Position numbers and translations under genes: made by a program. This document shows, piece by piece, positions 1,950 to 54,349 of a DNA stretch of 64,000 nucleotides (positions within the stretch are counted from its first letter, which is position 1; every line of letters starts with the position of its first letter). The stretch lies in the NCBI GenBank assembly GCA_963811705.1, contig CAWESL010000008.1, positions 454,673 to 518,672 on the forward strand, given 5' to 3'. Below the pieces are notes generated by a model, which was not told the DNA's origin, ran no database searches, and saw only the letters and a program-made list of their open reading frames with translations. Source of the DNA: Ignavibacteriota bacterium (GTDB taxonomy: Bacteria > Bacteroidota > Ignavibacteria > UBA10030 > UBA6906).

Positions 1950-2028
1950 CGGGATGATCCTCTGTACGACAAATGATTGCATTGGAAGATAACGACATCG
2001 GGGATAAAATTCGAGGCGCAGGCCGGGT

Positions 2029-2793: not shown

Positions 2794-3776
2794 TGCTGGG
2801 CTCCTTTCGCCGGGGACCCGCCGAGCAACTCCACGTAGACATCCTCGAGTGTCGCCCCATGCGTTTCGAGCGCGACGATGGGGCTGCGGGCAGCGAGCTT
2901 TCCAATCGCTTCAAGGACGTCTGCGCGGGTGACCGGGACACTCATGGTGACGGAGTCGCCATGGCGCGTGATGGCGACCGGCGCAAGAGAGCACAGCGCC
3001 GCGAACACTTCATCGCTGAGGGACCGAAAGGTGACGCTGATGTCGATCAGATCGGAGACCCGCGCAGTGATTGCCCCCAGGTCGCCAGAGGCGACCACGC
3101 GGCCGTGGTCGAGCAAGGCGATGGTATCGCAAAGCTCTTCCGCTTCTTGAAGGATGTGCGTCGTGAGGACGACGGTCCTTCCGGCCCGCGCCTGTTCGCG
3201 GAAGGCGTCGAGGGTCGAGCGCTTCGTGATCGGGTCCATCCCGGTTGTCGGTTCATCGAGAAACACAATGGGGGTGTCCGCCATGAACGCCTTCGCGACC
3301 TGGACCCGCCGTTTCGCGCCGCCGCTAAGATCGATCACTTTTTGCGCGTGGAATTCGTCCAGCCCGAACCGCGCGATCGCTTCACCGATCTTCCGCTTCG
3401 TCACATCCTTCGGCATGTTCTGAAAGCGGGCGAAGGTGACAAGGTTGTCCACAACGCTGAGGTAAATCTCCACGGCATTTTCCTGGAGGACGGAGCAAAT
3501 GCGCCGACGGATCTCGACGGGGTGCCGCACCACGTCGAACCCGAGGAGAGTGACTTCTCCGGAAGTTGGAAGTATCAGCGTCGTGAGAATGCGGAGAAGC
3601 GTGGTTTTGCCTGCTCCATTACGACCGAGCAGGCCGAACACCTCGCCCCGCCTCACCGTCAGATCGATACCATTGAGGGCCGTGACAGCCCTCGAAGTTC
3701 CGGCGCGATAAACCTTATGGAGGTTTGCGCAACGAACGGCTATTTCATCGCTTTGGGGATTCATTCTCAACTTCAA
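2790..3776 (-). CDS. ABC transporter ATP-binding protein (DrrA-like)
   Basis: GRNGAGKT, LSGG, FLDEPTTGMD, TTH motifs. Confidence 0.93.
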   Translation of the reverse strand: MKLRMNPQSDEIAVRCANLHKVYRAGTSRAVTALNGIDLTVRRGEVFGLLGRNGAGKTTLLRILTTLILPTSGEVTLLGFDVVRHPVEIRRRICSVLQENAVEIYLSVVDNLVTFARFQNMPKDVTKRKIGEAIARFGLDEFHAQKVIDLSGGAKRRVQVAKAFMADTPIVFLDEPTTGMDPITKRSTLDAFREQARAGRTVVLTTHILQEAEELCDTIALLDHGRVVASGDLGAITARVSDLIDISVTFRSLSDEVFAALCSLAPVAITRHGDSVTMSVPVTRADVLEAIGKLAARSPIVALETHGATLEDVYVELLGGSPAKGAQQ

Positions 3777-4008
3777 GTCCCTTGGCTAACTTCCTGCATT
3801 TCAACAGCCGGTGTGGAAGGATCCTTGTGAATATATGAATTTTGTAACATTTTCACCGCAAAAGCGTACCTCGGTATAGTGATCGTGTATTCCATCGGTG
3901 CTCAAGGGCTGATCTGACGGATTGTGGCGAACGGCAGTGACGTGCAAGCCCGGGCATCGAAACGTGCAATGGAGGAATCGTTCCAACGCTCGCTCCAGAG
4001 GAACATCC

Positions 4009-42773: not shown

Positions 42774-43811
42774 TTACTCATCCACCGGCGTCCACCGGTC
42801 CAGAAGCTTCTCCGGGATCCCGTCGATAAACCGCGATGGCTTCGAAAGGATCATCCCACTCTCGCGGTCGTAAACGTTGATCGGGTAGGTAATATAAAGG
42901 TGCTCCTTCGCCCGGGTGCAAGCGACGTACATCAGGCGCCGTTCTTCTTCAATCGCGTCATCGTCCGTCGCCGCCCGCGCGGCCGGAAATCGTCCCTCCA
43001 ACGCGTACATCACGAAAACCGTGTTCCACTCAAGACCTTTCGCGCTGTGAATCGTCGAGAGGATCAGCTTCTCATCGTCGCTCCCGGGATCGCTGATGTC
43101 CGCGACGCTCTCCGTTGCCGGCTCAAGCGCAAGATCCGTCAGCAGCGTCGACAGTGAACGGTAGCGCTCAGTAATTTGCACGAACATCTCCAGGTCCTTC
43201 GCGCGCTTGTTGTGATCGTCGTACCGGAGTTTGAAGATCGGCTCATAGTACTGCAAGAGGCGCTGCACACGATCCGTCGGACTCAAATGTTCGGCGGAGG
43301 CGTCCTTCAGGGTCGCAAACAACGGGACGGTCTTCTCGGGGTAGGAATTGTAGCTCGGCCAAAAGGACGGGAGCCGGGTCGACGTCGCATCGCCGGCAGG
43401 TCCGACTCGTTTTGAAAGAATATCATCGAGAATCTTCTCGGCCGTGCGGGGGCCGACACCGTCCACCAGAAGCAGAATCCGGTTCCATGCGACAGCATCG
43501 CGGGGATTGTCCAGCACCCGGAGATAGGAGACGATATCCTTGATGTGGGCTGTTTCCATCAGCTTCAGGCCGCCGTACTTCACAAACGGGACGTTCGCCT
43601 TGGTGAGTTCCACCTCAAGATCGAAAGAAAGAAAGCCCGACCGGAACAGCACCGCAATCTCGCCCAAGGAGATCCCTTCTTCACGCAATTCGAGCACCTT
43701 CTGCACGATGAACCGCGATTGAATGTTCTCCGTCTGAGCGGCAATAATGGCCGGCAGCTCCCCTCCCAATTTGTGCGTGTACAGTTCCTTCGAAAATTTG
43801 TGCCGGGTCAT
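42774..43811 (-). CDS. uvrD: UvrD/PcrA-like SF1A helicase, C-terminal half
   Basis: AVLFR, STIHSAKGLEW, EEERRLMYVACTRAK; own ATG overlapping the HMT stop (ATGA) with AGGAAGG upstream. Confidence 0.88.
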   Translation of the reverse strand: MTRHKFSKELYTHKLGGELPAIIAAQTENIQSRFIVQKVLELREEGISLGEIAVLFRSGFLSFDLEVELTKANVPFVKYGGLKLMETAHIKDIVSYLRVLDNPRDAVAWNRILLLVDGVGPRTAEKILDDILSKRVGPAGDATSTRLPSFWPSYNSYPEKTVPLFATLKDASAEHLSPTDRVQRLLQYYEPIFKLRYDDHNKRAKDLEMFVQITERYRSLSTLLTDLALEPATESVADISDPGSDDEKLILSTIHSAKGLEWNTVFVMYALEGRFPAARAATDDDAIEEERRLMYVACTRAKEHLYITYPINVYDRESGMILSKPSRFIDGIPEKLLDRWTPVDE

Positions 43812-44653
43812 GCAATCGCCTTCCTGAGCATACGGATGTATTCCGGTGTCGTGCCGCAACATCCCCCGATGAACGTCGCGCCGAGTGCCGCCCAGCGCTG
43901 CGCGTACACGATGTAGTCTTCCGCCGCGATGTCGCACTCCATCGAGCCGTCGTGTTCATCGCCCGGCAGACCGACGTTCGCATAGACGCCGAAGGGAAGC
44001 GCTGACGCCGTGCGCAGGCGGTGGATGGCAATCCGCATGAAGCGCGGCGAAATACAATTGAGCGCGAGCGCCCACGGCCGGCAATCGTTGACGGCCTCCA
44101 CGGCGTCTTCGATCGGGTGCCCGTCGTAGAGATCTCCCGTTGTGGAGCAGAGAAAACTGACGACCGTCGGCAAACCCGTCGACGTTGCGGCCGTGCATGC
44201 CGCATGGGCTTCTCTCGCCGTCCCCATGGTTTCGCAGAGAAGCATGTCCACTCCGGCGTTCGCGAGACGCCGCGCATGGAGGGCGTGCTCCGCGGCGAGT
44301 TCCTCATCCGAGGGGACGAGGTCCGGACGATAGCAGTCTTCCAGCGGGGCGATCGATCCTGCGATTCTTACCGATCGATCAGGAAAGGCCGCGCGTGCCT
44401 GCTTCGCCAGGTCGACCGCCAGTGATGTAAGCTCTTCCGATCGGTCCGGGATTCCGGTAAGCCTGAATGTTCTCTGCGTTGTCCGGAACGTGTTGGTCGT
44501 TATGATGTCCGCACCTGCGGCAATGTACTCTTCATGAATGGTCCGCACCAGGCCCGGATCATCGATCAACGCATTCGCCGACCAGAGCGGAAGCCGCACA
44601 TTGGCTCCGCGCCGGGCAAGCTCAGTCCCCATGGCACCGTCTAGGAGCATCAT
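43808..44653 (-). CDS. Homocysteine S-methyltransferase family protein, lying between the two uvrD halves
   Basis: LLDGAMGTEL, GADIITTNTF, LNC, GGCCGTTPE zinc ligands. Confidence 0.92.
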   Translation of the reverse strand: MMLLDGAMGTELARRGANVRLPLWSANALIDDPGLVRTIHEEYIAAGADIITTNTFRTTQRTFRLTGIPDRSEELTSLAVDLAKQARAAFPDRSVRIAGSIAPLEDCYRPDLVPSDEELAAEHALHARRLANAGVDMLLCETMGTAREAHAACTAATSTGLPTVVSFLCSTTGDLYDGHPIEDAVEAVNDCRPWALALNCISPRFMRIAIHRLRTASALPFGVYANVGLPGDEHDGSMECDIAAEDYIVYAQRWAALGATFIGGCCGTTPEYIRMLRKAIA

Positions 44654-44654
44654 T

Positions 44655-44790
44655 GAGTACGCAGTAGGCAGTAAGGAGTATGCAGAAAACATACTGGATT
44701 CAGCCGGGAGTAGGAAGTATGACGTAGGAAGTAGGAAGAAAGCGGAGGCATTCGTCCCCCCCATCTTCCCATCTCCCCCATCCCCTCTCT
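44655..44790. repeat. Short 7/8-mer tandem arrays in the uvrD interruption spacer
   Basis: AGTACGC/AGTAGGC/AGTAAGG/AGTATGC; AGTAGGA/AGTATGA/CGTAGGA/AGTAGGA; CCCATCTY-type octamers abutting the uvrD-N stop. Confidence 0.75.
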
Positions 44791-45860
44791 CAGTCTCTCG
44801 CCCGCCGTATAATCTCGTTCGTTAAATCCAGAATCGGCTGTGTGCTCCGGTAATTCTCTTCGAGCTTGATGATTTTACAGTCGTCATACTGCTCGGGGAA
44901 CTCGAGGATGTTCCGCACGGTCGCGCCGCGGAAGCTGTAAATCGATTGCGCGTCGTCACCGACCACCATGACGTTGTGATGCCGGGAAGCGAGGAGCTGG
45001 ACGATTTCGGCCTGGATGAGGTTCGTGTCCTGGTATTCGTCCACCATGATGTATTTGTACCGGTCGCAAATCTTGGTCCGGACTTGGTCCACGTCGCGGA
45101 GCAGTTTCCGCAGATAGAGGAGAAGATCGTCGTAATCCATGAGATTGTGGCGCGATTTATATTCTTCGAATGCCCGTTGGAGCTGTCCGATCTCTTCAAG
45201 ATATCCTTCGTAGTGCGGGTATTCGTCCCGAAGCACCTCACGAAGCGGCCGGACGGTGTTGACTGCCTTGGAGAAGATATCGTAGAGCGTCTGCTTCCGC
45301 GGAAAGCGCTTCTCCTTCGTGTCGAACTTCAGCTTCGTCCGGAGCAGGTTCACCACATCTTCAGCGTCTCCCTGGTCAAGGATGCTGAACGATGACTCGA
45401 ACCCCACGAGGGGAGCGTACTGCCGCAGGACGAGGTTCGCGAAGGAATGGAAGGTCCCGCCGGCGACGTTTTCACAGCGGGCATCGAGCAGCATCGACGC
45501 CCGGCGCAGCATTTCTTGCGCCGCCCGGCGAGTGAACGTCAGGAGGAGGATAGCCTCCGGCTTGACACCCAGCTCGACGAGATAGGCGACGCGATAGACG
45601 ATCGTCCTGGTTTTCCCGGTGCCGGCGCCGGCGACGATGAGGTGCGGCCCGTTGACGGAAGACGCTGCCTCGTATTGCGCGGCATTCAGTTCGTTCCGGT
45701 AGTCGATCTTGAACTTCTGGGGAAGCGACGGTGCCGGTTCGAGCCCTGCGTCCGGGGTTTTCTTGAGGACGTATTTTTTCAACGTTGTTCGGTCTTGGTG
45801 CTCCAATTGGAAATTGGCAGTTGGGAATTCCCACGTGGCAATTGGGAACTGCCAATTCAT
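44790..45860 (-). CDS. uvrD: UvrD/PcrA-like SF1A helicase, N-terminal half
   Basis: Q motif LNAAQ, AGAGTGKT, TFHS, VDEYQD, VGDDAQSIYSFRG, EENYRS then stop; start is ATG 45860 (coupled to DUF72) or TTG 45782. Confidence 0.9.
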   Translation of the reverse strand: MNWQFPIATWEFPTANFQLEHQDRTTLKKYVLKKTPDAGLEPAPSLPQKFKIDYRNELNAAQYEAASSVNGPHLIVAGAGTGKTRTIVYRVAYLVELGVKPEAILLLTFTRRAAQEMLRRASMLLDARCENVAGGTFHSFANLVLRQYAPLVGFESSFSILDQGDAEDVVNLLRTKLKFDTKEKRFPRKQTLYDIFSKAVNTVRPLREVLRDEYPHYEGYLEEIGQLQRAFEEYKSRHNLMDYDDLLLYLRKLLRDVDQVRTKICDRYKYIMVDEYQDTNLIQAEIVQLLASRHHNVMVVGDDAQSIYSFRGATVRNILEFPEQYDDCKIIKLEENYRSTQPILDLTNEIIRRARD

Positions 45861-46861
45861 AATTTCTTGGCCGGGTACGCCTCCAGCGTGTCGAGGATCC
45901 CCTCGATCGTCTTCGGCGAATTCCCTTCGGCACGATTGTTCACGTACACATAGAGTGCGCGCTTTTCCGCGACGCACCGGTGCACCGCCTCGACAATTCC
46001 TTCCCGGAGTTCCGGGTTTTCTTCTTTGAGATGATCGTACGGCTTGAACATTTCCACCGCCTGTTCGTAGGTCCGTCCCGGTTTCAACAAGGCCCGGACG
46101 ACCGAAAAGTCCGTCGTCAACGTTCCCGAGATCCCGACCTGGCGGATGATCGGCGGCATGCGGGTCCAGTTGTTGAAGACATGCGAGACGCCGTGATCGG
46201 CGAGGAGCTTCAGGTAATCGCTCGTGAGAAAATCGCTGTTCCGTACCTCGACCGCATAGGAATACCCCCGGGGGAGCTTGGACAGAAAGTTCTCGAGGAG
46301 TGCCACGAAGCGTTCGTCGTCGATCCCGGAGTTCGGGTAGAATGTCGAGAACTCGAAAATGATCGCTCCCCGTTTTGTGCCGAGTGCGTCGAGCGGGCGG
46401 AGAAACGCGTCTTCGAAGAGGGCTGCGTTCAGAAAGTCCGGATTGTCCTTTCCGGCGAGAGCTCCGTAACGGGCGATGCCGGGATACCGGAACACGGTAA
46501 TTCTGTCGGTCACCTTCAGCGCGAGGCGAAAACCATCGGGGGTCTGATCATTGATGCGCTCCATCGTCTCGCGGTCGGGAAAATCGTAAAGCGCGAAATC
46601 CGCGCACACCGTCGGGAACAGCGCGGCATACTCCGCGAGGCATTCCTGCTCGAAGCTGCGCTGTGAGGCATATCGCCGGTTATACACCATCCCTTTCCAC
46701 CCCGGATATTTCCAGGACGACGATCCGAAGAGGATCCCGCGTGAGGCCCATGTCTCGAGCCGACTCTTGTTCCGTTCGACATACTCCGACGTCGGCGGCG
46801 GGGCTTCCGGAAAGAGCGGAAGGGTCGCATCCGCTGTTGGTGTCCGCTTCTTTTTTGGCAT
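45857..46861 (-). CDS. DUF72 family TIM-barrel protein
   Basis: GSSSWKYPGWKG.VY, YA..F.TV..D, YAVEVRN, YVYVNNRAEG. Confidence 0.88.
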   Translation of the reverse strand: MPKKKRTPTADATLPLFPEAPPPTSEYVERNKSRLETWASRGILFGSSSWKYPGWKGMVYNRRYASQRSFEQECLAEYAALFPTVCADFALYDFPDRETMERINDQTPDGFRLALKVTDRITVFRYPGIARYGALAGKDNPDFLNAALFEDAFLRPLDALGTKRGAIIFEFSTFYPNSGIDDERFVALLENFLSKLPRGYSYAVEVRNSDFLTSDYLKLLADHGVSHVFNNWTRMPPIIRQVGISGTLTTDFSVVRALLKPGRTYEQAVEMFKPYDHLKEENPELREGIVEAVHRCVAEKRALYVYVNNRAEGNSPKTIEGILDTLEAYPAKKL

Positions 46862-46952
46862 GATGCAATATACGAACGCAGGGAGAGGAAAGAAAAAGTC
46901 CACAGACGCGTGGACTTTTTCATGACCGACCGGACAACATCGCGTGAGAGGC

Positions 46953-47756
46953 TCAGCCACCCATGCCGGCCTGCATGCCGGTGATCAGGGCGAACGCCAC
47001 CCAGAGGATCCAGAGCGCGAACACAAGCACGAGGACCTTGGTCAGGTCCTTCATGAAGAGGCGTGAGAGGCCGATGCTCACCACGCCGAGGTCCCAGAAC
47101 GTAAACAGATTGATCTTTGCCAGGAGGAGGTGAATTTTATTGTCGACCGAGAAGCTGTCGAGGACAAAGAGAGCAAGGTTTGGTCCGGCATGGAGTTTAT
47201 CGAACCCGATGGCCATGATCGTTGTGACGATGGACTCGAGGCACCCGATGAAGAAGGTCAGCCCGACCACCTCCACCACTTTCATATACGGTGCGTTGAC
47301 TTTCATCACTGTTTTGCCGAGCAGCCAGTAGACCAGGCAGACAAAGAACAATCCGATGGGGACGATGATCACGAGTGATCCGGCGGTGGTGATCGTCATC
47401 CACGGCGAACTGGGGTCGGTGAATTTTTCCATCTGTTCGCGGGCCTGGTCGGCCTGTTCGGCAGTCATCTTTCCGTTCTGGATCTGTTCCTGGAGTCGTT
47501 TTTCCGACTGCTGGGAGATCTGATCTTTGAGCTGACTGGCGAGCGACGGGTTGCGCAACGTGAGTTGTGACATGCCGAACGCAATGAGGATGAAGATGAT
47601 CAACGGCACGACCCAATTGGAGGGAGTCGATGCGGTGTTGCGGACGTTGTCGAACAGCTCACTGGGCGCCGCGAAGATATTCGTCAGTCGTTCCGTGAAC
47701 GACATTGGTGCGACGGGCGGTTCACCGGTTGCTTGCGGGGTAGTGGTGTCTTCCAT
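46953..47756 (-). CDS. Yip1 family membrane protein
   Basis: IFAAPSELF, TM / soluble helix / multi-TM layout, INLFTFW; AGGAG RBS. Confidence 0.8.
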   Translation of the reverse strand: MEDTTTPQATGEPPVAPMSFTERLTNIFAAPSELFDNVRNTASTPSNWVVPLIIFILIAFGMSQLTLRNPSLASQLKDQISQQSEKRLQEQIQNGKMTAEQADQAREQMEKFTDPSSPWMTITTAGSLVIIVPIGLFFVCLVYWLLGKTVMKVNAPYMKVVEVVGLTFFIGCLESIVTTIMAIGFDKLHAGPNLALFVLDSFSVDNKIHLLLAKINLFTFWDLGVVSIGLSRLFMKDLTKVLVLVFALWILWVAFALITGMQAGMGG

Positions 47757-47827
47757 GGAGGCTCCTTTTGTGGGTTGGAGACGGGGCAACGTAGTGAAAA
47801 ACCTTTTGAGAATCAACGGTTTTGAAT

Positions 47828-47880
47828 ACGACATTTTTGTCGTTGCGTGACTTGACAGAGCGACAAATTTGTCGTATTCT
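47828..47880 (+). promoter_or_regulatory. dinB-operon promoter with two CGACA-N4-TGTCG palindromic operators
   Basis: ACGACA-TTTT-TGTCGT 47828-43; TTGACA 47852-57; CGACAAATTTGTCG 47861-74; TATTCT 47875-80 (17-bp spacing). Confidence 0.75.
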
Positions 47881-47900
47881 TTTGTCGGAACTCACCCTGG

Positions 47901-47972
47901 TCCCCCCATCTCCCTATCTCCCCATCTCCCCTTCGCGCGAAGGGGGGAAGGGGAGAACGGGGGAGGGGGAGA
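47901..47972. repeat. Pyrimidine/purine octamer hairpin element, copy 1
   Basis: (CCCCATCT)n-CCCCTTCGCGCGAAGGGG-(GGGAGA..)n; similar element at 51243-51330. Confidence 0.7.
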
Positions 47973-47979
47973 AAGAGCT

Positions 47980-49164
47980 ATGCGCCTCTATCTCCATCTT
48001 GACCTCGACAGCTTTTTCGCCTCTGTCGAAACCGCGCTCCGCCCCGAACTGCGTGGGATCCCGGTGTGTGTGGGAGGGCAGCGGGGAGGGCGCGGGATTG
48101 TAACCTGTCCGAATTACGCAGCGCGCGCGTACGGTGTCCGGACTGCCATGTCGGTGCGCGCGGCGGAGCAGCTGCTTCCGTCGACGGCCGTCTTTCTGCG
48201 GGGGAACCATCGTCTCTACGGCGATTACTCCCGGCGCGTCATGGCAATCCTGGAGTCGTTTGGACCCGGCGTGCGGCAGAAGAGCATCGATGAGGCGCTG
48301 ATGGAAATACAGGGATCCCTGCATTTCTGGGGGGACGATCCGGTTCGCATGGCGCGGGCAATCAAGGACCGCATTCAGGAGGAGACGGAGCTGACCATCT
48401 CCGCGGGGATTGCGCCCAATCCGCTCTGCGCGAAGATCGCGGCGGGTCTGCGCAAGCCGGACGGCCTCGTGCTGATACGGCACGGTCGGGTGCGCGAGAC
48501 GCTTGCGCCGCTGCCGGTGGACGTCGTGCCGGGGATCGGCAAAAAGACCGCGCCGCGTCTCCGCATGCGGGGGATCTTCACGGTCGGCGACCTGATCGCC
48601 CGGGCGCCGGAGCGTGACGGCTGGCTCGGGTCGCTGGTGCAAGCGTTGCTGGACGAGAGCGACGACCGCGAACACGGCGACCATCAGGCCGAAGAACATT
48701 CCATCTCGCGCGACAGGACGTTCGGTCAGGACACCGCCGACCGGGAACAGATCGAAACGACGCTCTTCATGTTGACCGAACGATGCTGCAAGACGCTTCG
48801 CGCCGAAGGCCTCGCGGCGTCGACGGTAACGCTGAAAGTGCGGTATGCGGATTTCACCACCGTGCAGAAACAGGAGACCCTCCCGTCGGCCGTGATGAAC
48901 GAAGAACAGATCTTCGCGGCGGTGCGGTCGCTTCTCGACGATCTCCTGCCGCCGTGGCGGTTCGTCCGTCTCGTCGGCGTCAAGGTCTCGAACCTCTCGC
49001 CGCTGGAAGGGCAACAGCTCGTCCTCGACGGCGGAGAGACGGAGCGGCTGTATCAGCTCCACCAGGAAGTGGACGCGCTGCAAAAAAAGTTCGGGGAGAA
49101 AAGCGTGCGGTGGGGGAAGGGAACAATGGACGATGGAAAATGGAAGATGGAGAATCGAGAATGA
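47980..49164 (+). CDS. dinB: DNA polymerase IV (Y family)
   Basis: HLDLDSFFASVE, YAAR..GVR.AM, SIDEA, KPDG, PGIG, RLVGV; catalytic acidic residues intact. Confidence 0.95.
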   Translation: MRLYLHLDLDSFFASVETALRPELRGIPVCVGGQRGGRGIVTCPNYAARAYGVRTAMSVRAAEQLLPSTAVFLRGNHRLYGDYSRRVMAILESFGPGVRQKSIDEALMEIQGSLHFWGDDPVRMARAIKDRIQEETELTISAGIAPNPLCAKIAAGLRKPDGLVLIRHGRVRETLAPLPVDVVPGIGKKTAPRLRMRGIFTVGDLIARAPERDGWLGSLVQALLDESDDREHGDHQAEEHSISRDRTFGQDTADREQIETTLFMLTERCCKTLRAEGLAASTVTLKVRYADFTTVQKQETLPSAVMNEEQIFAAVRSLLDDLLPPWRFVRLVGVKVSNLSPLEGQQLVLDGGETERLYQLHQEVDALQKKFGEKSVRWGKGTMDDGKWKMENRE

Positions 49165-49256
49165 GTTCGTAATCTTCAATTCCCGCCGTTTGTGTGGCGG
49201 GCCGTCCCACAGAATGAGCTCTTACAACGACGACGAAAAACATGCGATGCGTTTCG

Positions 49257-50135
49257 ATGCACGACGAATTCTCTCTTCTCCTCTCATCCCTCTCCCCCTA
49301 CCTCCGCGCGTGGGCGCGGCATGAGGTGTTCATCACGCTCGCGTCGCGGGATGCGTTCGCGCGGAGCGGGCTGAATGCCGGTATGGCGGCGGAGCTGTTC
49401 GGAACAACTCTCGCGGAACTGCCGGCGGACGGCGCTCTCCAGTACGCTCCGCACGGCGCGGGCACGGTCGACGTGATTGTCGAGGACGATGCGCTTGTCT
49501 GCCGGTTCCCGTACGACCATCCCGACCGCGCACGGCGGGGAACGCTGAACGACGCGTTCCTGCACCCGGAACGATTTGCCGGACGCCTTGCCGCCGCGCT
49601 GGCGCCGCTCGGAGGGGCGGTACGACTGGTGGTGCTGCACCCTGCGCCGCTGTACAGGACGGAGGAGATGTCGTTTGCGGAGTTTCTCGGGCGGCTCGAC
49701 CGGTTCCTTGCGATGCTGCCGCCGCCGCACCGGTATGCGCTTGAACCGGTCGGCCCCCTCTGTTTCCGGCGAGAATATTTCGCGTGCCTGCAGGCACGGG
49801 GCGTGGTGCACGTGCTCAGCGAGGGGGAGGCGCTGTTCCGTGCGCTGCCGCCGGTCAGCGATCAGCTCGCGATGCCCGGCGCGCTCGGTCATCCCTTGTG
49901 CGTGGTCCGCACCATGCCCGATCCGGTGGTCCCGGGCATGTTCCGGCCGGTCCCGGACGTCGCGCTCCGAAGACAGGGATGGCGTGATGTGGTGCGGCGA
50001 TGCCTTGCGGAACACCTCCCGGTGTATCTGTTCGCCGATGACGCAACGGATCCGCTCCGGTCGCTGATGACGTTGATGACAATGATGAATGATGATCTGG
50101 CGGAGAGGTCGGTGATCAGGAGCCATGCGGCGTAA
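49257..50135 (+). CDS. Degenerate DUF72-like protein
   Basis: Aligns by eye with 45857-46861 (RFP..G..N..FL....F...L..LG; F...L..FL..LP....YA.E; L..xGV.HV) but lacks GxSxW and NN motifs. Confidence 0.65.
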   Translation: MHDEFSLLLSSLSPYLRAWARHEVFITLASRDAFARSGLNAGMAAELFGTTLAELPADGALQYAPHGAGTVDVIVEDDALVCRFPYDHPDRARRGTLNDAFLHPERFAGRLAAALAPLGGAVRLVVLHPAPLYRTEEMSFAEFLGRLDRFLAMLPPPHRYALEPVGPLCFRREYFACLQARGVVHVLSEGEALFRALPPVSDQLAMPGALGHPLCVVRTMPDPVVPGMFRPVPDVALRRQGWRDVVRRCLAEHLPVYLFADDATDPLRSLMTLMTMMNDDLAERSVIRSHAA

Positions 50136-50242
50136 CTCACCTCCGTCCCCTCTCTTACAAAGAGAGGGGAGTGTGGAGACGGTACGTCCGGGACGTTCGC
50201 TCCCCCTTCTCATTATAAGAGAAGGGGGATGGGGGGATGAGT
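50135..50242. repeat. Composite double-hairpin intergenic element
   Basis: TCCCCTCTCTT..AAGAGAGGGGA (50146-70) and TCCCCCTTCTC..GAGAAGGGGGA (50201-29) inside outer ACTCA../..TGAGT arms. Confidence 0.7.
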
Positions 50243-50268
50243 TCAAACGAGAGGCGGATAAGCAAAAT

Positions 50269-50988
50269 ATGGACAATCAGCGCTCTTCTGCGGCAACCAC
50301 CGCTGTTGCGAGTTTACCCGCCAGTTTGTTGGCGGGCCGTCCCGCGGCCGTCGCCGTCCGCGCGTCTGCATCGCTCTCGTACGCCGCGCTGGTGAACCGG
50401 TTCCATGCCGAGCCGCACGGCAAGCTCTACTGCCTGCACGGCGATGCGATGGTGTTCCGTGTCGCGCTCTCTGCGGCGTCGCAGGCGCTCCTGCGCGGCA
50501 TGACCGTCGCCCTGGTGGATGGCGCCAACAGGTTCGACGCGTATTTCATCGCGGAGTTCGCGCGCCATGTCGAGGCGCGCGGCGGACCGCCGCCGGCGCA
50601 GCTGCTCGACAAGATCTACGTGTCGCGCGCGTTCACCTGCTACCAGATGGAAGCGGTGGTCACGGAACGGCTGCCGAAATTTCTCGAGCGGACGGGGTCG
50701 ACGGTCGCCGTCCTGTTCGGACCGCTCGATACGTTCTACGACGACCAGGCGCCGATGTTCGAGGTGAAGGCGGGAATGGAACGGATGATCGCGACATTGC
50801 GACGGCTGCGTGAACAGAAGATCGGCGTCCTGGTGGCATCGCAGGACGTCCGCCTTGCATCGCCGGAACGCAGCGGCCTGTTCCCCCGGTTCGCCGCGGC
50901 AATGGATGCGGTGTACACCGTCGGACAGGAAGAAGGTGCGCTGACGATGGCCGCACCCCACCATGGCGCCGGCAGGAATCACACGTGA
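50269..50988 (+). CDS. Inactivated RadA/RecA-fold protein (iRadA/ImuA-like)
   Basis: VALVDGANRFDAY, LLDKIYVSRAFTCYQM RadA-like core; no Walker A (LHGDAMV instead). Confidence 0.75.
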   Translation: MDNQRSSAATTAVASLPASLLAGRPAAVAVRASASLSYAALVNRFHAEPHGKLYCLHGDAMVFRVALSAASQALLRGMTVALVDGANRFDAYFIAEFARHVEARGGPPPAQLLDKIYVSRAFTCYQMEAVVTERLPKFLERTGSTVAVLFGPLDTFYDDQAPMFEVKAGMERMIATLRRLREQKIGVLVASQDVRLASPERSGLFPRFAAAMDAVYTVGQEEGALTMAAPHHGAGRNHT

Positions 50989-51000
50989 GAGGAGACACCG

Positions 51001-51333
51001 ATGGGACGCACCGTACCGACATTTACCATGGTCTTGCAGCAGGAGATCGACAGCTGGGGGAAATTCCGCCGAGCGCTGCGCAAGGAAGATCAGGACGCGA
51101 TGGACGAGCTCTTCCGCTCCGCGCAACTGCAGCTTGCGGGAAGCGCGTACGCCGCCCGGCCGATCCCCTTCGAGAGCATCGCGATGGCGATGCTGGTGGC
51201 ACTGCAGCGAAGGGTGCGGGAGCTGGAACGCAGTGCGAAGTCACCCCATGTCCCCCCATCCCCCCATCTCCCCCTCTCCCCTTCGCGCGATGGGGAGAGA
51301 GGGAGAACGGGAGAGGGGGGGAATGGGGGATGA
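51001..51333 (+). CDS. Small helical PolB2-associated protein (arCOG07300-like)
   Basis: MGRTVPTF...W.KFRRALRKEDQ...DELF signature; AGGAG RBS; C-tail encoded by a repeat element. Confidence 0.75.
   Translation: MGRTVPTFTMVLQQEIDSWGKFRRALRKEDQDAMDELFRSAQLQLAGSAYAARPIPFESIAMAMLVALQRRVRELERSAKSPHVPPSPHLPLSPSRDGERGRTGEGGNGG
51243..51330. repeat. Pyrimidine/purine octamer hairpin element, copy 2
   Basis: CCCCATGT/CCCCATCC/CCCCATCT..CCCCTTCGCGCGATGGGG..GGGAGAAC. Confidence 0.7.
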
Positions 51334-51337
51334 GTTC

Positions 51338-53647
51338 ATGACCGGCTGGCTCTTCGACATCTACGCCTCTGCGCAGGGCGTTACCGTCTGGCTGATCGAC
51401 GCGGAAGGCAGGAAGTACCGCTGCACCTATCCGTTCGTTCCGTCGCTGTACCTCCATGTCGATCGCGACGGCGCCGCCCGTGCGGAAGCGCTCGTGCGAC
51501 GGTTCCCGTTTCCCATCGCGTTCCACCCCGACCACCGGCGGGAACTCTACAGCGACGACGTGTGGGACGTCTACCGCGTCGACGTCCACGACCCGCTGCG
51601 CTTCAAACAGGTCGTGCAGACGCTCGAACGCAACTTCCCCCATTATGTCTTCTTCGACTCCGATATTCCCGTTCCGCAACGGTTCCTCTATACGACGGGA
51701 CTGTTCCCCCTGGCGTTCGGGGAGTATGCGATCGACGGGGAGGGGCGACTGATCGGGTGGGACCTGCAGGACACGTACGACGCGATGGAATATACGATCC
51801 CTCCGCTCGTCCTCATGACCATCAAGAACCGGCCCGACTTCGTTTCGGCAAAACACCGGAAGACGTTTCAACTGGAGATCTCGTACGACGGGAGAACCTA
51901 TGCCCTCGAACACCAGGAACCGGCCGAGATCCTGCGCGCGCTCAACGACCACCTCGCCCGCTGCGACCCGGACGTGATCATGACGGAACACGGCGACGCG
52001 ATCCTCCTGCCCATGCTCACGCGGTTCGCCGCGGAAACGAAGATCGACATCGCGTTCAACCGCGACCCCGCCGCAGGATATCTCACGTCGCGGGCGTCGA
52101 GCTATTTCTCCTACGGCAAGATCGTCCATAAAGAAGGCGCGTTCGAACTTGCCGGCCGGTGGCACCTCGACCTGGAAAATTCCTTCATGATGAGCGAAGC
52201 CAGCCTGGACGGCGTCGTCGAGATCGCGCGCCTGACGCAGCTTCCCGTGCAGCATCAGTCGCGCGCGACCATCGGCTCCGCGCTTTCGTCCATGCAGCTT
52301 TCCTGGGCGCAACGCAACGGCTACCTCATCCCCGCGCGCAAACGGGAGCCGGAAGAGTTCAAACCCGCGTCGACGCTCCTCCTCGCCGACCGTGGCGGAC
52401 TGATCTTCCAGCCGCTCATGGGGTTCCACGAACAGGTGGCGGAGCTCGACTTCGTTTCGATGTATCCGACGATCATGGTGGAACACAACGTCTCGCCGGA
52501 GACCGTGAACTGCCGCTGTTGCACGAATGCCATCGTCCCCGAACTGGGCTACTCCATTTGCGAGCGCCGGCAGGGGATCGTCCCCTCCACGCTGCGGACG
52601 GTTGTCCGCCGCCGCGCGTTCTTCAAAAAGAAAAAGAAGGCGCTCAAAGCGGCGAACGATCCCGCCTGGGTGTTGTTCGACCACCGGCAGAACGCGCTGA
52701 AGTGGATGCTCGTCACCTGTTTCGGCTACCTCGGCTACAAGAATGCCCGGTTCGGCCGCATCGAAGCGCATGAGACGGTCAACGCCTTTTCGCGCGACGC
52801 CATCCTCCGGGCAAAAGAAGCGGCCGAGGCGCAGGGGTTCCAGTTCCTCCATGCGATCGTCGATTGCATGTGGATCAAAAAACCGGGCGCCACCGAGGAG
52901 GACTATCACCGGCTGGCCGCACAGGTGAGTAAGGACGTCGGGATCGACCTTTCCCTCGAGGGGATCTATTCGTGGATCCTGTTCCCATCGTCGAAGATGG
53001 ATCCGCTCATCCCCACCGCAAACCGCTATGTCGGGTGGTACACGAACGGCGAGATCAAGATCCGCGGCATCGAAGTCCGCAGGCGCGATACGCCGCTGTT
53101 CATCAAGCGGATGCAGGGAGAAATGCTGCAACTGATGGGGGAGGCGAACAATGTCCGGGAGATCGAAGCGCTCGTGCCGTCGCTCCTGGCAAAAGCCGGA
53201 GAGTTTCTCGGAGTGCTCAGGCGCGGCCAGGCCGACCCCGTGGAGCTGGTGATCCATTGCCACCTGCTCCGCGAACCGGAAGAATACACCACCAACACCG
53301 TCAACGCTTCGGCCGCAAAGGCGCTCGCCGAGGCGGGGGTCCACCTCGCGGCAGGGGAAATGGTCGATTATGTGGTGGTCGACGCCACCGGGAAGAAACG
53401 CCCCGAGAAAGCACGGCCCCTCGCCCTGTATGCGCTCGAGGACGGGTACGATATCGACTTCTACACGAAGCTCGCGCTCAAGGCGGTGGAGACGCTTCTT
53501 CTCCCGCTGGGGTATCCGGCCGACCGGCTCGCACGGTTCTTCAACATCGGCGACGGAAGGCGCAAACGGGCCGCCCGGCAGGAGACGGACGGCCTGCAGC
53601 TCTCGCTCTTTGACGTCCAGGAAGACATCAGCAACAATGCGGCGTAA
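51338..53647 (+). CDS. polB: Family B DNA polymerase, PolB2-type
   Basis: Motif A ELDFVSMYP; motif B RQNALKWMLVTCFGYLG; motif C HAIVDCMW (PolB2-style, not YGDTDS); KIRGIE.RR.D; degenerate exonuclease; terminal QLSLF. Confidence 0.9.
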   Translation: MTGWLFDIYASAQGVTVWLIDAEGRKYRCTYPFVPSLYLHVDRDGAARAEALVRRFPFPIAFHPDHRRELYSDDVWDVYRVDVHDPLRFKQVVQTLERNFPHYVFFDSDIPVPQRFLYTTGLFPLAFGEYAIDGEGRLIGWDLQDTYDAMEYTIPPLVLMTIKNRPDFVSAKHRKTFQLEISYDGRTYALEHQEPAEILRALNDHLARCDPDVIMTEHGDAILLPMLTRFAAETKIDIAFNRDPAAGYLTSRASSYFSYGKIVHKEGAFELAGRWHLDLENSFMMSEASLDGVVEIARLTQLPVQHQSRATIGSALSSMQLSWAQRNGYLIPARKREPEEFKPASTLLLADRGGLIFQPLMGFHEQVAELDFVSMYPTIMVEHNVSPETVNCRCCTNAIVPELGYSICERRQGIVPSTLRTVVRRRAFFKKKKKALKAANDPAWVLFDHRQNALKWMLVTCFGYLGYKNARFGRIEAHETVNAFSRDAILRAKEAAEAQGFQFLHAIVDCMWIKKPGATEEDYHRLAAQVSKDVGIDLSLEGIYSWILFPSSKMDPLIPTANRYVGWYTNGEIKIRGIEVRRRDTPLFIKRMQGEMLQLMGEANNVREIEALVPSLLAKAGEFLGVLRRGQADPVELVIHCHLLREPEEYTTNTVNASAAKALAEAGVHLAAGEMVDYVVVDATGKKRPEKARPLALYALEDGYDIDFYTKLALKAVETLLLPLGYPADRLARFFNIGDGRRKRAARQETDGLQLSLFDVQEDISNNAA

Positions 53648-53737
53648 GGAACCGGAACCCGGAAGGTACTGTTCAACGGGTATTCCTCGCCGGCCTCATG
53701 TACTCACAATCACCATCACACGTTCAAGGAGGTCACC

Positions 53738-54349
53738 ATGCGTCACCCCGCAACCGCAGTACTCACCGCCCTCGTCCTGCTGGTCATGGTCGCAGCCAGC
53801 CCGCTCCTCGCGCAGGAAAACAAGGGCGACGCCGCAATGCAGGAAATGATGAAGAAGTGGCAGGAATCCATGACCCCCGGCGCCCCGCACAAAGCGCTCG
53901 CCGCTCTCGAAGGCACCTGGAATGCGGAAGTCCGCTCGTGGATGAGCGGTCCCGATCAGCCGCCCTCCGTCAGCAAGGGAACATGCACATACAAGATGAT
54001 CTTCGGCGGTCGCTATCTTGAACAGACGTTCACGAGCGAAATGATGAACATGCCCTTCTCGGGAACGGGCTACACCGGCTACGACAACACGAACAAGCGG
54101 TACTTCGGCTTCTGGATCGACAACATGAGCACGGGAATGTCGACGATGGATGGGACGATGAACCAGGCTGGAACCGTTCTGACGATGTACGGCAAAATGG
54201 ACGAGCCCGGCACGGGGGAACTTGGGAAGAACGTCAAGTATGTGACGCGTATCCTCGGCCCGGACAAAAACGTGTTCGAAGTGTACGACCTGACGCAGGA
54301 TGACGCGAAGGGGAAGATGATGGAGATTGTTTACACGCGAGCCAAGTAG
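53738..54349 (+). CDS. DUF1579 family secreted protein
   Basis: PGAPHK.L..LEG.W, GGRYL, G.GYTGYDN, WIDNMSTG; AAGGAGG RBS. Confidence 0.85.
   Translation: MRHPATAVLTALVLLVMVAASPLLAQENKGDAAMQEMMKKWQESMTPGAPHKALAALEGTWNAEVRSWMSGPDQPPSVSKGTCTYKMIFGGRYLEQTFTSEMMNMPFSGTGYTGYDNTNKRYFGFWIDNMSTGMSTMDGTMNQAGTVLTMYGKMDEPGTGELGKNVKYVTRILGPDKNVFEVYDLTQDDAKGKMMEIVYTRAK

Follow-up and report, generated by a model that had tools for sequence, protein, structure and literature searches.

A PolB2 polymerase, a DinB and a decayed DUF72 copy in one, apparently damage-inducible operon of an Ignavibacteria bacterium

An uncultured Ignavibacteria bacterium encodes an archaeal-type PolB2 polymerase, DinB as a second bypass polymerase and a DUF72 repair-like protein in decayed form within one operon which, judging from its predicted operators, is apparently damage-inducible. 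We consider it probable, at roughly 60%, that this locus encodes a translesion synthesis system under LexA-like control, with the bacterial PolB2 mutasome already known as its core, in which DinB would insert and the PolB2 complex would extend. The window analyzed is a stretch of 64,000 nucleotides (contig CAWESL010000008.1, positions 454,673 to 518,672 of the forward strand), and all coordinates refer to it.

Organization of the operon and its control region

The operon (47980-53647) consists of five genes on the plus strand, which in the list of open reading frames follow each other in the order DinB, g2, g3 (iRadA), g4 (PPB2) and PolB. The initial annotation had placed five co-directional genes behind an operator-bearing promoter, and the open reading frames were found as described, on the plus strand and preceded by one sigma-70-like promoter. 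The features of the region are the following:

45857..46960, minus strand: canonical DUF72 (PF01904, 1.4e-31; 1vpq, 6.4e-17)
46953..47834, minus strand: divergent membrane protein (weak YknW-family match)
47829..47842, no strand assigned: operator 1, palindrome CGACATTTTTGTCG, extended form ACGACA-N4-TGTCGT, directly 5' of the -35 hexamer
47852..47880, plus strand: promoter-like site TTGACA-17-TATTCT, sigma-70-like (10/12 matches)
47861-47874, no strand assigned: operator 2, CGACAAATTTGTCG, occupying the promoter spacer
47901..47972, plus strand: G/C-rich leader hairpin repeat (36-nt arms, 81% complementary; -60.5 kcal/mol, z -3.8)
47980..49164, plus strand: DinB, Y-family, Pol IV-like (Pfam IMS 2.8e-41, IMS_C 9.3e-30)
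49242..50135, plus strand: g2, degenerate DUF72 paralogue (start at 49257 in the source's gene call)
50137..50245, plus strand: G/C-rich intercistronic hairpin between g2 and iRadA (-65.6 kcal/mol, z -5.4)
50269..50988, plus strand: iRadA (g3), Rad51/RadA-fold core lacking the N-terminal domain (frame open from 50125)
51001..51333, plus strand: PPB2 (g4), formerly arCOG07300, a small protein starting with MGRTVPTF
51251..51332, plus strand: G/C-rich hairpin repeat at the PPB2/PolB2 junction (-67.5 kcal/mol, z -4.5)
51338..53647, plus strand: PolB2-type family-B polymerase (motif A intact; motif C I-V-D)

TTGACA-17-TATTCT is the only strong promoter-like site between 47600 and 54000, and no terminator-like site was found on the plus strand within the operon, so that the five genes apparently form a single transcription unit. 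The leader hairpin belongs to a repeat family dispersed in the bacterium's own genome, and the hairpin at the PPB2/PolB2 junction is 83% identical to it; the 3' arm of the leader hairpin is purine-rich and contains a Shine-Dalgarno-like run ahead of the DinB ATG. The divergent membrane-protein gene is the first of an opposite transcription unit and has its control region in common with the five-gene operon, and the canonical DUF72 gene overlaps it by 8 nt. The position of the membrane-protein gene is kept in related loci, and a divergent canonical DUF72 gene is present in 19 of 107 loci.

Operators and a LexA-like repressor candidate

Both operators are perfect CGACA-N4-TGTCG palindromes. Allowing up to one mismatch, this motif has 9 matches in the window against a shuffle mean of 3.85, and none of 100 shuffles reached 9. 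In 67 related loci, 27 perfect sites are located in promoter windows of 480 nt (0.84 per kb) versus 19 elsewhere (0.020 per kb), an enrichment of about 40-fold. The extended ACGACA-N4-TGTCGT motif was also found upstream of related operons, and another locus of the same genome (C13) has nearly the same layout, with TTGACA, operator and TATGTT.

Marker genes indicate a completeness of 100% for the genome, and it has no match to LexA_DNA_bind (PF01726). Its single S24-peptidase gene encodes a LexA-like HTH_3-S24 protein of 216 aa (HTH_3, 3.8e-10; Peptidase_S24, 7.1e-25), in whose sequence an A-G pair before the S24 domain as well as G-Q-S-M and L-K-K-V are visible. A perfect operator is located 44 nt 5' of the start codon of this gene, with the TTGACA layout of the operon promoter. 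At one related locus (L022), a 75%-identical orthologue of the S24 protein is encoded behind an operator and ahead of iRadA, and the gene order is the same at a second one (L019). None of the 27 sites obtained with at most one mismatch and an A/T spacer is near recA (C3:248164). Because the palindrome adjoins the only S24 gene and is so strongly enriched in related promoter windows, it has the appearance of an SOS box for this lineage, and the inducibility that had been claimed for the operon fits with this predicted, conserved operator.

PolB2, iRadA and PPB2

The polymerase carries KWMLVTCFGYLGY and HAIVDC, the latter aligning with D-T-D of Pyrococcus abyssi PolB, with the first motif-C aspartate replaced; in all 26 rows covering motif C, this motif reads I-[VI]-D or M-V-D. 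Its match to the PRK05761.1-2 models (2.3e-120) is far stronger than that to the Pol II models (8.8e-14 or weaker), all scores being below the curated cut-offs, and the control lists of NF004416 and NF004418 do not fix what these models stand for. The best PDB matches were Thermococcales PolB structures (7.7e-50). ExoI reads D-L-Q where archaeal PolB has D-I-E, the ExoII region reads HGDAILLP, and the N-terminal region reaches only 15.7 bits against archaeal PolB; judged by these motifs, the proofreading exonuclease site is lost. The loop EEFKPASTLLLADRGG (FKPA...ADRGG) corresponds to a predicted Rad51/RadA-type oligomerisation motif followed by D(K/R), and F-K-x-A and A-D-R occur in 25 of the 25 rows covering this region. 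Thirteen residues from the C-terminus, LQLSLFD was judged by eye to be a QLxLF-type beta-clamp motif.

Searching g3 against Pfam yielded no match. Its AlphaFold2 model (pLDDT 80.5) matched RAD51, RadA and DMC1 chains in Foldseek (E 8e-10 to 1e-8, TMq 0.54-0.65), and the top eight hits of a PDB profile search were all RadA or Rad51 (E 0.015-0.16). In the model, residues 1-33 are disordered and the strand at 53-58 leads almost straight into the helix at 61-75. A GxxxxGK[ST] P-loop motif was not found in g3, its Walker B aspartate is replaced (V-I-D-S aligns with I-I-F-G), and by eye no beta-clamp motif was seen at its C-terminus.

The MGRTVPTF start of PPB2 is also present in all 24 listed orthologues, and its N-terminal MGRT arm is a published PPB2 motif (PMC11791011, section 3.3.1). 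PF26485 (DUF8156) was found in all of 120 PPB2 homologues, among the matches listed. Conservation is confined to about the first 80 residues, and the open reading frame continues through the hairpin repeat. Three features that the initial annotation had named, a PolB with PolB2-style motifs and a degenerate proofreading domain, a RadA-like protein lacking Walker A (here with a Rad51/RadA fold in the predicted model) and a small protein beginning with MGRTVP, were thus recovered.

DinB and the DUF72 paralogue within the operon

The first protein of the operon has IMS, IMS_HHH and IMS_C domains with Pfam scores above the cut-offs, and its DLD...FFASVE and SIDEA motifs align with the solved Pol IV 7yll (E 8.2e-59), which agrees with the earlier proposal that the Y-family polymerase keeps its catalytic residues, as far as motifs indicate. 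Against the best NCBIfam Pol IV equivalog it scored 292.8 bits, under the cut-off of 389, and against PRK02406.1 it scored 247.4, under the cut-off of 256. QQLVLD is present at the position expected for a clamp-binding motif, and the tail after it looks like a RecA N-terminus. The genome has no other IMS-domain (Y-family) gene. In the DinB tree, 19 operon DinBs and two others form one clade (support 98/97), separate from the DinBs that genomes of the same family carry at other positions. Sequence comparison thus defines it as a Y-family DinB-type enzyme in a clade of its own.

The second gene, g2, matches Pfam DUF72 (PF01904) with E 1.4e-4 and 22.5 bits, under the 25.3-bit cut-off, and PF01904 is carried by 3 of 9 listed g2 relatives, the window's own protein excluded. 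Like the DUF72 family (1VPQ, 1VPY, 1ZTV), g2 has a predicted TIM-barrel fold (pLDDT 88, pTM 0.88), with DUF72 structures 1vpy, 1ztv and 1vpq as the top Foldseek matches (E 1e-5 to 6e-5), and a certain profile-profile match to its canonical DUF72 neighbours (hhalign probability 100, E 2.5e-40, 260 columns). Apart from its low Pfam score, g2 departs from that family in an invariant C-terminal tail that it has acquired and in keeping only 10 of the 37 columns that are invariant in canonical DUF72, a set defined on 10 canonical sequences, all of them from this lineage. The 27 lost columns include W88, D126, K149, R240, H256, N341 and N342 (numbered as in the canonical DUF72 of the window), and the initial description of g2 as a degenerate DUF72 therefore held. 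The g2 clade (18 rows) and the group of the window's canonical DUF72 together comprise 36 rows with a support of 100, and the closest canonical relative of g2 is the neighbouring DUF72 at 45857..46960. In our reading, g2 is a rapidly diverged duplicate of this neighbouring gene. An endonuclease IV-like DNA enzyme has been proposed computationally for the DUF72 protein TM1631 (PMC3828134); for g2, our guess is a non-catalytic role as a DNA-binding, lesion-binding or adaptor protein rather than an enzymatic one.

Of the related loci, 81 include 1300 nt or more of upstream sequence, and in 77 of these iRadA and PPB2 are encoded ahead of PolB2 in the same order. Seventy loci could be assessed for the other two genes: DinB is part of the operon in 18 and absent from it in 52, a DUF72-family gene adjoins iRadA in 22, and 48 have no g2. 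The locus is modular, the five-gene form is a recurring variant among several, and most related loci lack both the DinB and the DUF72-like gene. Several observations, this modularity among them, speak for an alternative in which the PolB2 mutasome only shares an SOS-type promoter with an independent DinB and an independent DUF72 paralogue, each acting by itself like unrelated SOS genes in other systems, with no hand-off between the polymerases and with g2 outside the complex: a DinB without a DUF72-family gene was found in 7 loci, the reverse in 7, and neither in 41 of the 70; LexA-like, Cdd1-like HhH and DUF72 genes occupy the same upstream position in other loci; and a canonical DUF72 gene at C13 is also under the same predicted operator. 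We regard such mere co-regulation as possible but rather unlikely, given that the operon DinBs are a clade of their own and not the local housekeeping DinB, that g2 is always directly 5' of iRadA, with open reading frames that abut or overlap in several loci (L005, L011 and L021), and that the loss of most conserved polar family residues from g2 argues against an ordinary independent enzyme. Among 61 sampled genomes of the order, PolB2 is present in 53, and 10 have PolB2 without an IMS match, indicating that the core works without the operon DinB and perhaps without any DinB; in 43 sampled genomes having both PolB2 and DinB, the genes are adjacent in only 5.

We find it very improbable that g2 is a duplicate without function that is decaying within the operon. 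In favour of this view, the g2 clade has a long stem (1.44) and long terminal branches, most canonical invariant columns are gone, and the gene has been lost from many related operons. On the other hand, the frame is intact in 19 of 19 aligned members, in which 11 columns are invariant and 9 nearly so and which all end in the same ...RSxIRxxAA tail, the fold is predicted confidently, and across the operons that the clade covers PolB2 has an identity of only 67-80% to the copy in the window. Equally hard to sustain is a recently acquired mobile island instead of a resident system, which would fit the G+C content of the operon (0.638, compared with a genome value of 0.571 and flanks at 0.576-0.580) and the reported passage of PolB2 from archaea into bacteria (PMC11791011), but not its wide presence in the order, the synteny of the flanks in relatives (DUF1579 downstream, membrane-protein and DUF72 genes upstream) or an operon G+C that follows the host from 0.51 to 0.65 in 9 relatives, and on general inspection no integrase or tRNA was seen.

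Proposed mechanism

In the translesion synthesis system that we favour, the HTH_3-S24 protein would bind both ACGACA-N4-TGTCGT operators and would be removed by self-cleavage after DNA damage, and its loss would derepress the five-gene operon as well as the divergent unit of membrane-protein and canonical DUF72 genes. Following published models, the FKPA...DR loop of PolB2 would bind iRadA, a PPB2 trimer would insert its MGRT arm, and the C-terminal QLSLF of PolB2 would bind the beta clamp. Archaeal Dpo2 is poor at insertion opposite lesions and good at extension of mispaired termini (PMC8764526), and by analogy to this biochemistry we infer a coupling of DinB as inserter and PolB2 as extender, in which DinB would insert opposite the lesion and the PolB2 complex would then extend. 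As the initial annotation proposed, g2 may also be a subunit of this system.

Comparison with known systems

The bacterial iRadA-PPB2-PolB2 operon and a predicted heteropentamer of its products have been published, as has the finding that lexA and DUF72 genes are enriched in its vicinity (Makarova 2014, PMC4104785; Timinskas 2025, PMC11791011). The proposed bacterial cassette of PolB2, an arCOG07300 protein and an inactive RadA is borne out by gene order and motifs, and calling the locus an uncharacterised system was overstated. In common with the published mutasome, our locus has iRadA, PPB2 and PolB2 in the one gene order that those papers describe for bacteria, the MGRT arm of PPB2, the PolB2 oligomerisation motif followed by D(K/R), a motif C of the I-x-D type, a dead exonuclease, DUF72 and LexA genes nearby, and a beta-clamp motif in one of two proteins (PolB2 or iRadA, rarely both). 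Relative to these descriptions, it differs in two further genes inside the operon, for a predicted active-type DinB from a clade of its own and for a DUF72 paralogue that is degenerate, in a repressor candidate that is an HTH_3-S24 protein and not a canonical LexA, and in the divergent membrane-protein/DUF72 unit at the same operator region. The accessible main text of both papers does not mention a linkage to DinB, and their neighbourhood tables are in the supplements.

Non-canonical LexA proteins of Bacteroidetes are HTH_3 (XRE)-S24 repressors (COG2932; PMC8565304). The candidate described here likewise joins an XRE-type HTH to an S24 peptidase, its genome has no canonical LexA, and a palindromic operator precedes its own gene and a dinB gene, whereas the motif is CGACA-N4-TGTCG and not GGA-N5-TCC or CTAA-N5-TTAG; Ignavibacteria do not occur in the accessible text of that study.

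The Dpo2 of Sulfolobus islandicus (PMC8764526, PMC7390963) is likewise a family-B polymerase without proofreading and with the first motif-C aspartate replaced, and its expression is damage-inducible, a likeness that is predicted here from the operators. Unlike the present system, it is archaeal and uses PCNA-type partners, and the Y-family Dpo4 is encoded apart from it and is not needed for Dpo2-dependent mutagenesis (PMC11791011). A strict scheme with a Y-family inserter and PolB2 as extender is weakened by this. The accessible parts of the cited PolB2 literature contain no biochemistry on any bacterial PolB2.

The ImuA-ImuB-DnaE2 and DnaE2B-PolY-RecA modules (PMC12926913) also combine, in an SOS-controlled operon, a RecA/Rad51-like protein, a Y-family member and a non-proofreading extender. 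Judged by its motifs, our Y-family protein has kept its catalytic site, like that of DnaE2B-PolY and in contrast to ImuB, while the extender belongs to family B and not family C, and the RecA-like protein has a predicted Rad51 fold and appears inactive. These cassettes have no homology to our locus beyond the Y-family gene. To the known PolB2 system, this locus adds an operon DinB with its own clade, a DUF72-family gene beside iRadA, a candidate SOS box and a divergent transcription unit.

Organization of the operon

Five co-directional genes occupy positions 47980-53647 behind one operator-bearing promoter, an arrangement noticed in the initial annotation and confirmed here by ORF calls and a promoter scan.

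Genes of the operon
47980-49164, + strand, ORF encoding DinB
49242 or 49257 to 50135, + strand, ORF (g2) with two possible starts, a degenerate DUF72 paralogue
50269-50988, + strand, ORF (g3) encoding iRadA
51001-51333, + strand, ORF (g4) encoding PPB2
51338-53647, + strand, ORF encoding a family-B polymerase (PolB2)

A consensus scan of 47600-54000 yielded one strong promoter-like site (TTGACA-17-TATTCT, 47852-47880) and no terminator-like site on the + strand within the operon. Three very stable G/C-rich hairpins are located in the 5' leader (47901-47972), in the gap between g2 and iRadA (50137-50245), and at the PPB2/PolB2 junction (51251-51332), with energies of -60 to -68 kcal/mol and z values of -3.8 to -5.4. 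In the repeat that forms them, a C-rich arm with 8-nt periodicity pairs with a G-rich arm, and the purine runs resembling Shine-Dalgarno sequences ahead of DinB and PolB2 sit within hairpin stems. No significant fold was detected in the DinB-g2 spacer (z -0.46). Because the genome holds 17 copies of a 12-mer from the hairpin repeat, we regard the hairpins as members of a dispersed repeat family and not as an operon-specific signal. A role as terminators was ruled out, given that they lack a U-tract, that the scan found no + strand terminator, and that they are copies of this repeat. A repeat of the same type is also present at 44750-44790.

The operon has a G+C content of 0.638 (GC3 0.76-0.83) compared with 0.571 for the genome, a difference that might suggest a recently acquired horizontal island. 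This was rejected: PolB2 is present in 53 of 61 genomes sampled from the order, the genes on either side are syntenic in relatives, and in nine relatives the excess is smaller or absent (-0.008 to +0.04 over the left flank), with the G+C content of the operon following that of the host. The public sequencing runs listed for 47700-53700 were four DNA runs, all of a single study (shares 0.09-0.33), and included no RNA run.

The PolB2 core

No Pfam or NCBIfam family matches g3. A profile built from 16 orthologues and compared with PDB gave eight best hits that were all RadA/Rad51 proteins, at weak E-values of 0.015-0.16. The AlphaFold2 model (mean pLDDT 80.5, core mostly above 90, residues 1-33 disordered) matches the fold of RAD51, RadA, and DMC1 chains with E-values of 8e-10 to 1e-8, solved RadA structures with FHTA-type peptides being among the hits. 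At the position of the RadA P-loop, strand 53-58 passes almost straight into helix 61-75 and GK[ST] is absent; the position of the Walker B aspartate is occupied by F/G. In the protein atlas, g3 neighbours clusters of bacterial proteins, 14-17% of whose members have the Rad51 Pfam family assigned; we treat this as a lead only. The single complex prediction, of iRadA with g2 from their family alignments, scored 0.07 against a mark of 0.32 and is evidence neither of binding nor of its absence.

MGRTVPTF opens the g4 protein and each of the 24 listed orthologues, and MGRT is given as the hallmark of PPB2, formerly arCOG07300, in section 3.3.1 of a 2025 study (PMC11791011). Homologues of g4 numbered 1097 proteins at E ≤ 0.001, and the best 120 of these 1097 all carry PF26485 (DUF8156).

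The polymerase matches the archaeal-type PRK05761 models at 2.3e-120 and the Pol II models at 8.8e-14 or weaker, missing all curated cut-offs. Its nearest solved relatives are Thermococcales PolB enzymes (7.7e-50), and no Pol II chain appears among the 60 PDB matches listed. Motif A is intact, motif C reads I-V-D compared with D-T-D in archaeal PolB, D-L-Q stands at ExoI, and over the exonuclease region the alignment scores only 15.7 bits. The loop EEFKPASTLLLADRGG contains an F-x-x-A motif plus D-R, and F-K-x-A and A-D-R are found in 25/25 related sequences that cover it; it corresponds to the element reported in PolB2 as a Rad51-like oligomerisation motif with a subsequent D(K/R) in the text of PMC11791011. 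Close to the C-terminus, LQLSLFD fits the QLxLF clamp motif reported in the same text (PMC11791011). Elsewhere in the genome (C14:66691-70578; minus strand, 1330-3684 of the fetched region L046) lies the gene of another family-B polymerase, 784 aa long. Among NCBIfam models this protein is matched best by those for Pol II, with no better than 2.2e-34 and scores well short of the cut-offs, and on this basis it belongs to a PolB group other than that of the window PolB2.

The reading of these genes as a PolB2 mutasome holds for its core, and it is this same core that had been published (PMC4104785, PMC11791011), which speaks against the label of 'uncharacterised system' given to it initially. 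The association of PolB2 with arCOG07300 and an inactive RadA, its occurrence in some bacteria, and a link to lexA are described in the text of a 2014 paper (PMC4104785). From the text of the 2025 study (PMC11791011) come the names PPB2 and iRadA, the statement that iRadA-PPB2-PolB2 is the only bacterial gene order, a modelled PolB2-iRadA-PPB2(3) pentamer, the clamp motifs of the system, and the observation that its neighbourhood is enriched in lexA, SRAP, and DUF72 genes.

Distribution of the five-gene form

We examined 107 related loci, 27 from GTDB genomes and 80 from metagenome contigs, with PolB2 proteins 40-91% identical to that of the window. Of the 81 loci having at least 1300 nt upstream, 77 carry iRadA and PPB2 ahead of PolB2. 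A match to iRadA was obtained in 86 loci, and 70 of these had enough upstream DNA to be assessed.

Table. Genes upstream of iRadA in the 70 assessable loci
DinB + DUF72-family gene + core: 11/70
DinB + core: 7/70
DUF72-family gene + core, no DinB: 7/70
DUF72-family gene + core, DinB not assessable: 4/70
Neither DinB nor DUF72-family gene: 41/70

DinB thus lies within the operon in 18/70 loci and a DUF72-family gene adjoins iRadA in 22/70, counts of loci that are not independent, since near-identical pairs are included (L014/L063, L088/L118, and L065/L066, for example). One locus, L002, was assigned to the first row by hand, as both genes are present and g2 was missed by the 400-nt gap rule. 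In distant loci, the + strand ORFs between an upstream DUF72 gene and iRadA resemble antisense reads of a minus-strand gene.

In an even, order-wide sample of 61 genomes, PolB2 was found in 53, an IMS gene in 48, and, from intersecting the tables, both in 43. The two genes are adjacent in five genomes (G000, G002, G003, G012, and G016), and PolB2 occurs without an IMS match in ten.

An operon-associated DinB clade

DinB has the IMS, IMS_HHH, and IMS_C domains of Pfam, and its acidic catalytic motifs align with those of the solved Pol IV 7yll (E 8.2e-59); its score is under the NCBIfam equivalog cut-offs. It is the sole IMS-domain gene of the 5.18-Mb genome, for which marker-gene completeness is 100%.

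In a maximum-likelihood tree of 32 DinB sequences, 19 operon DinBs and two non-operon DinBs clustered together (ultrafast bootstrap 98, SH-aLRT 97). A different type (clade support 99/98) is encoded by members of the window's own family that have DinB outside the operon, and some genomes have a third, long-branched type. The possibility that the operon DinB is a housekeeping DinB that has been relocated is rejected by this tree. The partial operon DinBs of L006, L008, L104, and L112 were omitted, as were L130, L133, and L149, the three of 20 fetched regions with no tblastn match of at least 300 residues at E ≤ 1e-30; the DinBs of these three are 28-30% identical and have C-termini of the third type.

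The C-terminal part of DinB carries QQLVLD at the position of Q-L-x-L-type motifs in relatives, followed by a segment that resembles the N-terminus of the organism's own RecA. We considered this tail as a speciality of operon DinBs and rejected the idea, as the K-[FYH]-G...G pattern is also found in the DinBs that related genomes encode away from the operon. Many operon-type DinBs (L016, L021, L027, L054, L064, L090, and L100) have a conserved further extension, ...EGY-x-LHSPVYE[LM], that is absent from L002 and from the window DinB, whose frame enters a purine-rich repeat instead.

A degenerate DUF72 paralogue

The match of g2 to Pfam DUF72 is weak (E 1.4e-4; 22.5 bits, cut-off 25.3 bits), and a word-based search recovered just 10 relatives, three of them annotated PF01904. 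Homology to DUF72 was shown by comparing alignments and folds. When an alignment of 19 g2-type proteins was compared with a second alignment, of 10 canonical DUF72 sequences from the lineage, hhalign gave a probability of 100 (E 2.5e-40, 260 columns). The AlphaFold2 model of g2 (pLDDT 88, pTM 0.88) has the DUF72 structures 1vpy, 1ztv, and 1vpq as its best fold matches, followed by other TIM barrels, with modest TM-scores of 0.44-0.53. Against PDB sequences, the g2 profile gave no hit at E up to 1, and the canonical profile matched 1vpq at 6.4e-17.

Of 37 columns invariant in the 10 canonical sequences, the window g2 retains 10; W88, D126, K149, R240, H256, N341, and N342 are among those lost. 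A ...RSxIRxxAA tail, absent from canonical DUF72 proteins, closes every one of the 19 g2-type sequences in the alignment. The extreme C-terminus (window 50100-50135) follows the pattern ...L-A-x-x-S-x-[IL]-[RK]-x-x-A-A, is basic, and ends in Ala-Ala; a role as docking peptide or protease tag is conceivable.

When 54 DUF72-family sequences of the loci examined were placed in a quick tree, g2-type genes formed a single 18-row clade (SH-aLRT 100, stem 1.44). Together with the short-branched, divergent canonical DUF72 genes beside the operon, they formed a 36-row group (support 100) distinct from the second canonical DUF72 type, which lies beside a LexA-like gene. The exact attachment of the g2 clade is unsure because of long branches, for which the program issued a warning. 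Local duplication of a DUF72 gene followed by rapid divergence is the simplest reading.

A candidate operator and LexA-like repressor

The control region holds two perfect CGACA-N4-TGTCG palindromes, one (47829-47842) abutting the -35 hexamer and the other (47861-47874) occupying the promoter spacer. With at most one mismatch, the window has nine matches compared with 3.85 expected, and none of 100 shuffles reached nine. Genome-wide, the unrestricted palindrome occurs 25 times and its reversed control once. Perfect sites with an A/T spacer number five, namely two in the window, one on contig C13, C10:304046, and C21:254423. The genome site scan found no operator near recA.

A genome-wide search found no LexA winged-helix domain. 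The single S24 peptidase gene of the genome, on C13, encodes a 216-aa HTH_3 + Peptidase_S24 protein. It and another canonical DUF72 gene, the second of the genome, are transcribed divergently, with a perfect ACGACA-N4-TGTCGT between them, and the pair spans C13:70786-72570 (2307-4093 of the fetched region L039); the layout TTGACA-operator-TATGTT nearly copies the window promoter. In the related locus L022, a 75%-identical S24 orthologue follows an operator and a Cdd1-type HhH gene and precedes iRadA, and this gene order recurs in L019, where tblastn gives a 77%-identical match. Across the 67 related loci with sufficient upstream sequence, perfect sites are concentrated in the 480 nt preceding the operon's first gene (27, or 0.84 per kb, versus 19 elsewhere, or 0.020 per kb). 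By this strict rule 26/67 loci have a perfect site, several of the misses having a site just beyond the 480-nt window or 1-mismatch sites only.

Further arrangements were observed around these elements. The Cdd1-type helix-hairpin-helix protein of L022 matches PF11731 (3e-27), and a small gene of this type with a LexA-like gene follows the operator in L018, L019, and L022. In L019 and L022 the pair stands directly before iRadA, at the position of DinB and g2 in the window; in L018 some 7-8 kb separate it from PolB2, which lies downstream, and iRadA is adjoined by a second operator and by a canonical DUF72 gene in divergent orientation. More distant PolB2 loci such as L065, L078, L081, L088, L097, and L118 have the pair seen on C13, LexA-like (minus) and DUF72 (plus), directly upstream of the PolB2 core. 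Of the C10 and C21 sites (regions L038 and L040), one is upstream of a family-less 186-aa ORF and the other of a family-less 245-aa ORF followed by a DUF932 gene; these ORFs may also belong to the regulon.

The divergent unit

On the other side of the shared control region lies a divergent unit, followed downstream by three overlapping ORFs, each in a frame of its own. Two of these three are the separate halves of a UvrD-like helicase.

Genes of the divergent unit and its neighbours
46953-47834, - strand, membrane-protein gene, weak YknW-family match
45857-46960, - strand, canonical DUF72 gene
44790-45977, - strand, UvrD-like helicase N-terminal half (PF00580, 9e-75)
43808-44764, - strand, homocysteine S-methyltransferase-domain ORF (PF02574, 1e-69)
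42774-43937, - strand, UvrD_C ORF (1e-47)

The membrane-protein gene overlaps the start of the canonical DUF72 gene. A divergent canonical DUF72 gene is present in 19/107 loci, with the membrane-protein gene alongside in most of these. The UvrD/methyltransferase/UvrD_C order is kept in six relatives (L002, L003, L004, L011, L012, and L016, by tblastn), and because these ORFs are downstream of the divergent unit, they may share the damage regulon.

Discussion

Four features are added to the published core: the integration into the operon of a DinB from a dedicated clade; a DUF72 paralogue that is degenerate and always adjoins iRadA; a candidate SOS box with a candidate non-canonical repressor for the lineage; and a divergent membrane-protein and DUF72 unit that shares the control region. 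A literature search by title or abstract found no operon linkage of PolB2 and DinB. DinB appears only as background in the text of the 2025 study, whose neighbourhood tables may already list it (PMC11791011), and this study was the only relevant one for DUF72 and SOS.

We infer that DinB and PolB2 are functionally coupled, and g2 may have a structural role. Further still, and with a chance of about one in five, the PolB2 mutasome may have been enlarged in this lineage to a self-contained bypass machine. The dedicated DinB would insert; the g2 pseudo-enzyme would be a lesion-binding or hand-over adaptor, with its tail as a docking or degradation signal; and canonical DUF72 proteins, under the LexA-like repressor, would be the missing enzymatic partner, acting on the lesion site. 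Were this so, the widespread DUF72 family would gain its first cellular role, and there would be a bacterial model of inserter/extender translesion synthesis by a family-B polymerase. Membership of DUF72 in the candidate DNA-damage regulon of the lineage is suggested by regulatory and genomic evidence, since one canonical copy is beside the repressor gene, a second is across the shared operator, and the degenerate copy is in the operon.

In the literature consulted, experimental knowledge of PolB2 comes from archaeal biochemistry, and the bacterial complex is known from in-silico models. The division into inserter and extender is drawn from archaeal Dpo2, which, as reported in the text of PMC8764526, is exonuclease-free, inserts poorly opposite lesions, and efficiently extends mispaired termini. 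The locus and its relatives constitute a natural experiment in which an extender-type PolB2 complex is genetically wired to a DinB of its own clade that is active as judged by motifs. Modules built on DnaE2 and containing active Y-family polymerases are described in a survey of bacterial polymerases from 2026 (PMC12926913); the portions of its text considered here mention PolB2 in passing only and contain no PolB2-DinB module. Our results do not overturn current views and offer concrete constructs with which to probe cooperation between a family-B mutasome and a Y-family polymerase.

No title in the literature searched concerned LexA in Ignavibacteria, and the portions of the Bacteroidetes LexA paper considered here do not mention this group (PMC8565304). 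The HTH_3-S24 architecture of the C13 protein is like that of the Bacteroidetes 'non-canonical LexA', and the operator differs from the motifs published in those portions (PMC8565304). The candidate operator/repressor pair would thus extend the idea of a non-canonical LexA from Bacteroidetes to an Ignavibacteria lineage, with a new motif.
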